DNA from: Escherichia coli
Lineage (GTDB): Bacteria > Pseudomonadota > Gammaproteobacteria > Enterobacterales > Enterobacteriaceae
Length of the DNA: 64,000 nucleotides
Strand: one strand, 5' to 3'
NCBI RefSeq assembly: GCF_044647545.1
Contig: NZ_CP172818.1
Both the position numbers and the translations under genes were made by a program. The notes under the pieces are model-generated. The model worked only from the letters and a program-made list of their open reading frames with translations. It ran no database searches and was not told the DNA's origin. This document shows, piece after piece, positions 60,433 through 61,087 of the stretch; the first letter of the stretch is position 1; each line of letters starts with the position of its first letter.

Positions 60433-60840
60433 TTATCTTTGCGTCTCTTGTTGTAACAATATCCGCCGTAAATCCCGCCATTCGGCTTCGTCCATGCTGT
60501 CAGCTGCCAGCCATAAATGTTGCCGTTTTCCGCTGTCAGAACGTAAACGCAGCATCATGCCGCTCTTAATCATCCACGGCGCTTTGACGATGCTCCACTC
60601 CTGCCCTTGCCAACGCAAACGCCCGTCCATCAACAAGCGAATTTCCCCCTGGCGAGCATTAATGCGCCGCTGGCTGCGAACGCAATCAAACACCACCAGC
60701 GAAAGTAACACCATCCATAACGGGGTGTAACTGAGCGGCCAGGGCATGAGTAAAATAACAGCGGCAACCAGCCCATGAATCAGCAAGGAAAGCCACTGTG
60801 CGCGCCAGGAGACGCGCAAATCAGATTGCCACAGGACCAC
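60433..60840 (-). CDS. ygfX: Inner membrane protein YgfX (reported CptA toxin)
   Basis: 135 aa with two predicted TM helices; overlaps the upstream sdhE by 20 nt. Confidence 0.88.
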
Positions 60841-61087
60841 GTTCCCGGTTCCGTGTCTGGATGAGTCGGACCATCATTTCCAGTTCTGCATCGGCTGGTT
60901 TACCGTGATTCATCAGCCAGTTAAACAGGTCCGGATCGTCACATTCCAGCAGACGAATAAAGATGCGTTTTTCGTCATCGCTTAAGCTGTCGTACTCATG
61001 TTCGAAAAACGGCATGATTGAAATATCGAGTTCGCGCATACCACGGCGGCATGCCCAATGAATGCGGGCTTTGTTGTTAATGTCCAT
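60821..61087 (-). CDS. sdhE: FAD assembly factor SdhE (reported CptB antitoxin)
   Basis: 88 aa; conserved RGxxE motif (CRRGMRELD). Confidence 0.9.

Follow-up and report, generated by a model that had tools for sequence, protein, structure and literature searches.

Two small genes on the minus strand of a 64,000-nucleotide stretch of Escherichia coli DNA (contig NZ_CP172818.1; "the window" in the following), sdhE and ygfX, share 20 nucleotides (nt). The upstream gene, sdhE, codes for a conserved assembly factor for flavin adenine dinucleotide (FAD), and the downstream gene, ygfX, for a small inner-membrane protein. Under the names CptB and CptA, the two products have been described as antitoxin and toxin. 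The locus thus raises the question whether the pair is a toxin–antitoxin (TA) module or a housekeeping operon, and what keeps the two genes overlapping. We consider it likely, with a probability of roughly 0.8, that this is the known sdhE-ygfX operon in which YgfX acts as a membrane-anchored partner of SdhE that is made at a low level and is not a dedicated toxin.

Identity of the locus

The pair in the window is a textbook locus which was already known, the two-gene operon sdhE-ygfX on the E. coli chromosome. For E. coli K-12, where sdhE is also called ygfY or cptB and ygfX is also called cptA, the gene names, the gene order, the 20-nt overlap, and the neighbors fldB, xerD, dsbC, and ygfZ all match. 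Compared to the K-12 operon there are only strain-level differences, chiefly a 10-bp insertion at positions 61235-61244 which is lacking in most E. coli genomes. RefSeq reports the same coordinates and the 20-nt overlap in an identical E. coli genome and in a second strain, with fldB (convergent) and ygfZ (divergent) as flanking genes. Over 966 nt, the locus agrees fully (100% identity) with an E. coli chromosome, and this region occurs in exactly one copy in 5425 of the 5426 complete E. coli genomes. Among these 5425 matches, one sits on a record labeled as a plasmid, and one complete genome is without a match.

The product of sdhE has been shown to be an FAD assembly factor which aids the covalent attachment of FAD to SdhA and FrdA. 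The protein from the window matches the Pfam family Sdh5 (PF03937; E = 5e-26, 90.8 bits at a cut-off of 27) and the NCBIfam equivalog "FAD assembly factor SdhE" (198.4 bits at a cut-off of 120). Its sequence agrees fully (100% identity) with the solved structures of E. coli SdhE in the PDB entries 1X6I and 6C12, and chain 6B58_B covers residues 6-84 with R8F as the only substitution. In an alignment of nine SdhE sequences, C13-R14-R15-G16-M17, E19, L20, and D21 are invariant; G16, which belongs to the RGxxE motif, is critical for function (PMC8621075). Five helices are predicted (AlphaFold2, from the model of the fused chain described below), in line with membership in the family of small five-helix bundles. 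An E. coli ygfY mutant is viable and loses succinate dehydrogenase (SDH) activity and growth on succinate (PMC5293155), and SdhE is conserved across alpha-, beta-, and gammaproteobacteria as well as eukaryotes (PMC5042078). YgfX matches the Pfam family Cpta_toxin (PF07254; E = 1e-49, 168.5 bits at a cut-off of 27.3) over residues 2-131. The first-pass annotation of the window had named both genes and had described an SdhE of 88 residues with an RGxxE motif as well as the 20-nt overlap, all of which was confirmed by the open reading frames (ORFs), by Pfam and NCBIfam, by identity to PDB entries, and by RefSeq.

Conservation of the overlap

A locus scan which was based on an SdhE alignment and covered one genome per species yielded 80 loci. 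All of them are from Enterobacteriaceae, and their SdhE proteins are 84-100% identical. Because YgfX diverges too fast for a pattern-based scan, loci beyond Enterobacteriaceae were obtained from 12 look-ups of contigs, each starting from a single distant YgfX homolog. Both genes were placed in each locus by profile hidden Markov models, and the junction was then measured. In 96 loci, namely that of the window and 95 others, ygfX is located directly downstream of sdhE on the same strand. The overlap is exactly 20 nt in 89 of these 96 paired loci, among them all 80 Enterobacteriaceae species representatives, where it is combined with a GTG start. The homologous position is occupied by a GTG in 91 of 94 loci.

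The 20-nt overlap is also encountered in Edwardsiella, Providencia, Mixta, the isolate "Enterobacteriaceae bacterium LUAb1," and two metagenomic loci (L009 and L093), and the order ygfZ / sdhE-ygfX / fldB / xerD / dsbC is retained in distant Enterobacterales loci that carry the overlap. It persists although YgfX evolves much faster than SdhE, with about 27% (YgfX) and about 70% (SdhE) sequence identity between E. coli and Pantoea ananatis. The overlap in Pantoea ananatis is 26 nt, with the start codon two codons further upstream. Two AT-rich metagenomic loci have an ATG start and an overlap of 14 nt (L010) or 19 nt (L012), and in L003 and L004 the genes are separated by a 1-nt gap (TAA-C-GTG). 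The metagenomic loci L096 and L097 (positions 1689-2402) have a 30-nt spacer, an ATG start, and a GAGGG Shine-Dalgarno sequence of their own. These two loci have a GC content of 42.5% and carry rsmI and a LysM/M23 peptidase gene downstream in place of fldB. In Shewanella, the gap is 37 bp (PMC8621075). All YgfX homologs from the sequence search that have a named source belong to Enterobacterales. The 20-nt overlap is thus almost universal within Enterobacterales and characterizes this one order rather than the family as a whole.

The first-pass annotation had considered the association of a small membrane protein with a conserved FAD assembly factor to be unusual, and had suggested checking if the overlap is absent from most orthologous loci. 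The association is borne out as a persistent one by the 96 paired loci, and the overlap is present in the great majority of them.

In Kluyvera genomosp. 3 YDC799 (L057) and Leclercia adecarboxylata NCTC13032 (L092), ygfX is frameshifted, with sdhE and the 20-nt junction intact. The Leclercia locus is counted among the 80 above, its frameshift being located downstream of the junction. These frameshifts could be long-read assembly errors or could represent real pseudogenisation. Should they be real, the two strains can do without ygfX.

Constraint on the shared sequence

The final 17 coding bases of sdhE, together with its stop codon, double as the first 20 bases of ygfX, and the ORF listing and the minus-strand sequence show that, relative to sdhE, ygfX is read in the +1 frame. 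The shared sequence GTGGTCCTGTGGCAATCTGA encodes (R)GPVAI plus stop for SdhE, and M1-V-L-W-Q-S-D7 for YgfX in the +1 frame. Entropy was computed over 79 Enterobacteriaceae species for 240 sliding windows around the junction, and the overlap 20-mer has the lowest entropy of these 240 windows. Its mean entropy is 0.04 bit, compared to 0.52 bit in the flank which codes only for SdhE and 0.63 bit in the flank which codes only for YgfX. At third codon positions, the values are 0.10 and 0.02 bit in the overlap (0.016 bit for the ygfX frame) versus 1.04 and 1.18 bit in the flanks. Third positions are thus near-fixed in the overlap, as is to be expected where each base is non-synonymous in one or the other frame. 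Among the 5425 E. coli genomes, 5162 show an identity of at least 99% over the 60-nt junction. Given its occurrence in 89 of 96 loci and its position in the lowest-entropy window, the overlap is no chance feature.

Several observations bear on the question which of the two proteins is under selection at the junction. The Pfam domain Sdh5 stops at residue 79 of SdhE, and a Vibrio homolog aligns only up to residue 80. In the model of the fused chain, SdhE residues 81-90 have a mean predicted local distance difference test (pLDDT) value of 62, which is below 50 from residue 88 onward into the linker. In L003, sdhE ends just before the GTG, so that SdhE is without the RGPVAI tail, and YgfX still begins with MVLWRAELRVS. 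The simplest reading would be that the N-terminal strand of YgfX is the selected element and that the SdhE tail is a tolerated passenger: the overlap may have become frozen since the strand (MVLWQSD) is structurally needed, while GPVAI would be disordered and carried along.

Start codon of ygfX

The GTG at 60838-60840 is the most upstream start that is possible in this frame, being the first after an in-frame stop codon. The N-terminus of YgfX aligns gap-free among homologs down to 22% sequence identity (21% in a set of 54 sequences), and residues 2-11 are conserved in a diverse family alignment, with W4 and S11 occurring in at least 90% of the sequences. Because of this conservation, and because an N-terminal strand and the first helix are formed in the AlphaFold2 model, the GTG is, judged from sequence and model, the true start of ygfX.

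The overlap would be an annotation artifact if ygfX truly started further downstream, at the TTG of codon 8 or the ATG of codon 32. GTG is a weaker start codon and lacks a strong Shine-Dalgarno sequence, and several public annotations of YgfX orthologs are shorter (97, 104, 111, or 114 residues). However, residues 2-11 are conserved even though the orthologs share only 23-59% sequence identity overall. According to the AlphaFold2 model, membrane helix 1 would be lost with a start at Met32, and most of the confidently modeled N-terminal strand with one at codon 8. The GTG at its homologous position in nearly all loci and the near-invariant third positions of the ygfX frame, as given above, also speak against this explanation. 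A downstream start is thus very improbable and was rejected on the basis of N-terminal conservation and the structure model. The YgfX products of 97-114 residues which are reported by some pipelines are best read as start-calling errors.

The +1 overlap might also be taken to support programmed frameshifting that leads to an SdhE-YgfX fusion protein. Fusions of 166-217 residues which contain both Pfam domains do exist in public assemblies (P0003, P0004, P0006, P0007, P0009, P0012, P0013, and P0021). These are, however, singletons or near-singletons from metagenome assemblies, and their junctions are at scattered positions with differing out-of-frame stretches, as is expected for random indels or assembly errors. 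Neither a slippery motif nor a stimulatory structure is evident at the junction from the sequence and the RNA fold. We rejected programmed frameshifting because of the scattered junctions of the database fusions, and attribute only a negligible likelihood to it.

Predicted fold of YgfX

The AlphaFold2 model of YgfX was built on 54 sequences and has a mean pLDDT of 94. In this model, residues 2-8 form a strand and residues 12-31 and 36-62 two long helices, after which six further strands lead to a C-terminal helix (118-134). The two helices after the N-terminal strand are predicted to form a membrane hairpin, and a basic stretch that follows the hydrophobic part of the second helix suggests that the chain continues on the cytoplasmic side. 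With moderate confidence, the cytoplasmic part is predicted to be a beta-sandwich, capped by the C-terminal helix, that resembles pleckstrin homology (PH) domains, and the order of secondary structure elements suggests that the N-terminal strand completes this PH-like domain. A Foldseek comparison of the YgfX model to the PDB returned nothing significant, the weak matches including the PH-like domains of GRK2, Rtt106, and EROS. The Pfam scan gave no sequence match of YgfX to any PH family, and no sequence-level relative with a solved structure was found. YgfX differs from PH and Ran-binding domains in that one strand apparently comes from the extreme N-terminus, ahead of the membrane hairpin, and is a candidate member of this group at most. 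In our literature search, we found no paper which ties CptA/DUF1434 to pleckstrin homology, which is no proof of novelty as public AlphaFold models exist.

Toxin–antitoxin module or housekeeping pair

That the pair has been reported as a TA-like module, as stated in the first-pass annotation, is true of the literature: toxicity of E. coli YgfX and its neutralization by YgfY have been published (Masuda et al., 2012, according to the accounts in PMC8621075 and PMC3985639), and a similar TA result has been reported for the homologous pair from Acinetobacter baumannii (PMC8132199). Under this reading, the locus would be a genuine TA module of type IV. YgfX/CptA would be a membrane toxin which blocks polymerization of FtsZ and MreB, SdhE/CptB would be the antitoxin that protects these targets, and the overlap would ensure that antitoxin synthesis precedes and exceeds that of the toxin. 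As in many TA operons, the proteins are small and the gene for the "antitoxin" comes first and overlaps that for the "toxin"; the arrangement as a two-gene operon with the antitoxin gene in front is indeed what is found here. The Pfam family is named "Cpta_toxin."

The genomic behavior of the locus does not fit well with this reading. TA systems typically, although not by definition, are accessory, patchy, and mobile; sdhE-ygfX is part of the core genome, present just once in each of 5425 out of 5426 E. coli genomes, and syntenic across several Enterobacterales families. Being core, single-copy, syntenic, and vertically inherited, the locus behaves as a housekeeping operon. The housekeeping role of SdhE is established, and structures of its complexes with SdhA and FrdA have been solved. 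Its phylogenetic range (PMC5042078) far exceeds that of YgfX, for which the homologs with a named source are all from Enterobacterales. A lone YgfX homolog of 147 residues which is about 32% identical to E. coli YgfX was found in a 3.6-kb locus (L095:1136-1579) that contains no sdhE in any frame. This homolog adjoins bacA, folB, and plsY-like genes. Neither SdhE nor YgfX matches any PADLOC defense-system model.

The model for the CptA/CptB claim is the type IV TA system CbtA/CbeA (YeeV/YeeU), in which the toxin is reported to act on FtsZ and MreB and the antitoxin acts on the targets, not on the toxin. The pair from the window differs by the membrane anchor of YgfX and by the housekeeping role that SdhE has besides. 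Neither SdhE nor YgfX matched the CbtA or CbeA family in Pfam scans. CbtA/CbeA are located in prophage-like accessory regions whereas sdhE-ygfX is core and syntenic.

Experiments in two relatives also speak against the TA reading. In Serratia sp. ATCC 39006, sdhE and ygfX are co-transcribed, SdhE is needed for flavinylation of SDH and of fumarate reductase (FRD), and SdhE has the membrane protein YgfX as an interaction partner (PMC5042078). The Serratia work gave no TA phenotype but did show a direct SdhE-YgfX interaction, which contradicts the definition of a type IV system (PMC3985639). Regulation by FlhDC, RsmA, and RsmC as well as a link to prodigiosin are specific to Serratia. Shewanella oneidensis has the genes in the same order (ygfY-ygfX); they are transcribed together, and YgfY needs its RGxxE motif in order to function (PMC8621075). 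The Shewanella genes differ from those in the window in being separated by 37 bp, with no overlap; L096 and L097 are likewise spaced (30 nt). Shewanella YgfX is non-toxic, causes no shape change, binds neither FtsZ nor MreB, and is not neutralized by YgfY, and a strain lacking both genes behaves like one lacking ygfY (PMC8621075). The TA reading of the first-pass annotation thus holds as far as reports for E. coli and Acinetobacter are concerned, has not been reproduced in Serratia and Shewanella, and is in poor agreement with the genomic behavior of the locus. We consider it unlikely that the pair is a genuine type IV TA system, and the label "CptA toxin," which lives on in Pfam and numerous genome annotations, probably misleads.

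According to the interpretation that we prefer, which draws on published interactions, YgfX would be SdhE's membrane-anchored partner, acting close to the membrane-bound complex II enzymes, and growth arrest upon overexpression would be a side effect. A more specific version, in which YgfX is a PH-like adaptor, its fold completed by the strand encoded within the 3' end of sdhE, that tethers or regulates SdhE at the inner membrane as the site of complex II flavinylation and assembly, and in which dual coding has locked the two genes together in Enterobacterales, is possible and is proposed here only tentatively. Besides the toxicity published for E. coli and for Acinetobacter baumannii, a number of points weigh against a membrane-anchored SdhE partner made at a low level. 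The SdhE-YgfX interaction was undetected in Shewanella (PMC8621075). An AlphaFold2 model of a fused SdhE-linker-YgfX chain, computed from a paired alignment, has confident halves and a predicted template modeling score of 0.48 with no inter-domain error estimate, and thus neither supports nor rejects an interface. The remaining points concern the translation of ygfX.

Expression and translational coupling

Co-transcription of sdhE and ygfX has been reported in relatives (PMC5042078, PMC8621075, PMC8132199) and would also apply to the E. coli locus. As the GTG from which ygfX would be translated lies inside sdhE and seems to have a poor ribosome-binding site, YgfX levels may be low and tied to sdhE expression. 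The link could consist of limited reinitiation, or ribosomes that translate sdhE could keep the ygfX start accessible. Upstream of the ygfX GTG, only GGAA/GGGAA is found by sequence reading, whereas sdhE has AGGAAG. The sequence ACGGAAT is retained in most Enterobacteriaceae, and the proximal GGGAA is changed to AAAGAA or AGAGAA in Buttiauxella and Cedecea. The lineage with a 30-nt spacer (L096 and L097) has acquired a canonical GAGGG together with an ATG, which is a plausible argument for coupling in the overlapping loci.

On the opposite side, the stop–start distance is -20 nt (the start is 17 nt upstream of the stop), which is outside the range from -8 to +6 nt. That range is treated as the efficient one for reinitiation, which falls steeply with distance in reporter experiments on native E. 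coli gene pairs (PMC10666635; reviewed in PMC12548453). A stop–start distance of about 20 nt nearly abolishes reinitiation, a result obtained by lengthening spacers and not overlaps, which leaves the present case unsettled (PMC10666635). Furthermore, there is no stable structure which hides the ygfX start: the fold of a 120-nt RNA has -38.9 kcal/mol, with z = -0.63 relative to shuffled sequences, and only a small hairpin touches the GTG. The first-pass annotation had stated that the overlap indicates translational coupling. The overlap itself stands; that ygfX translation depends on sdhE translation is plausible from the sequence, with roughly even odds, in view of a distance beyond the efficient range and the lack of a stable structure.

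Features of the locus and its flanks

The coordinates of the genes and of further features are compiled in Table 1.

Table 1. Features of the sdhE-ygfX locus (positions refer to the window)
Feature	Coordinates	Strand	Description and basis
sdhE	60821..61087	minus	ATG start, 88 residues, TGA stop at 60821-60823; ORF list, Pfam, NCBIfam, RefSeq
ygfX (cptA)	60433..60840	minus	GTG start at 60838-60840, 135 residues, small inner-membrane protein; ORF list, Pfam, RefSeq ("protein YgfX")
Dual-coding overlap GTGGTCCTGTGGCAATCTGA	60821..60840	minus	20 nt; ORF list, minus-strand sequence, RefSeq
RGxxE motif of SdhE	61031..61045	minus	RGMRE, R15-G16-M17-R18-E19; translation
YgfX predicted membrane helix 1	60748..60807	minus	Residues 12-31; AlphaFold2, pLDDT >90
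YgfX predicted membrane helix 2 with cytoplasmic extension	60655..60735	minus	Residues 36-62; AlphaFold2
YgfX predicted C-terminal cytoplasmic domain	60436..60654	minus	Residues 63-135; six beta-strands and C-terminal helix, PH-like
Shine-Dalgarno-like AGGAAG	61091..61096	minus	3 nt upstream of the sdhE ATG; putative, from sequence reading
Purine-rich stretch GGAACCGGGAA	60842..60852	minus	Within sdhE, upstream of the ygfX GTG; putative, a poor Shine-Dalgarno sequence at best
Inverted repeat TGACGGC/GCCGTCA	60400..60429	unstranded	7 bp with a 16-nt loop; possible terminator hairpin, from sequence reading

The inverted repeat occupies most of the 39-nt gap between the stop codons of the convergent genes fldB and ygfX. 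A T-rich run follows it on the plus strand only, and it may thus terminate fldB. As the terminator scan had a loop limit of 8 nt, this repeat with its longer loop was not reported by it. The scan gave two terminator-like matches, both within ygfX and no more than expected by chance. A consensus promoter scan found no sigma-70 site, including in the sdhE-ygfZ intergenic region. A TACAAT hexamer (61123-61128, minus strand), 35 nt upstream of the sdhE ATG, is a possible -10 element and has a poor -35 match. An Rfam scan of positions 59700-61500 with permissive settings found no RNA family.

The 10-bp insertion mentioned above (TGATATGCTT on the minus strand) is located in the sdhE-ygfZ intergenic region, and another E. 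coli strain is without it. Only 122 of the 5425 genomes have at least 99% identity across the 966-nt region, and most of the matches listed have 956 nt. The insertion looks like a minority allele in a divergent promoter region.

Implications

For a locus that is already known, our analysis quantifies how firmly the 20-nt overlap has become fixed in Enterobacterales, offers a structural reason for this fixation, and casts doubt, on genomic grounds, on the "toxin" label. If YgfX is indeed a PH-like membrane-anchored protein linked to SdhE, it would be a candidate for a membrane-side partner in the flavinylation of complex II. This would bear on the maturation of succinate dehydrogenase as well as fumarate reductase in enteric bacteria.

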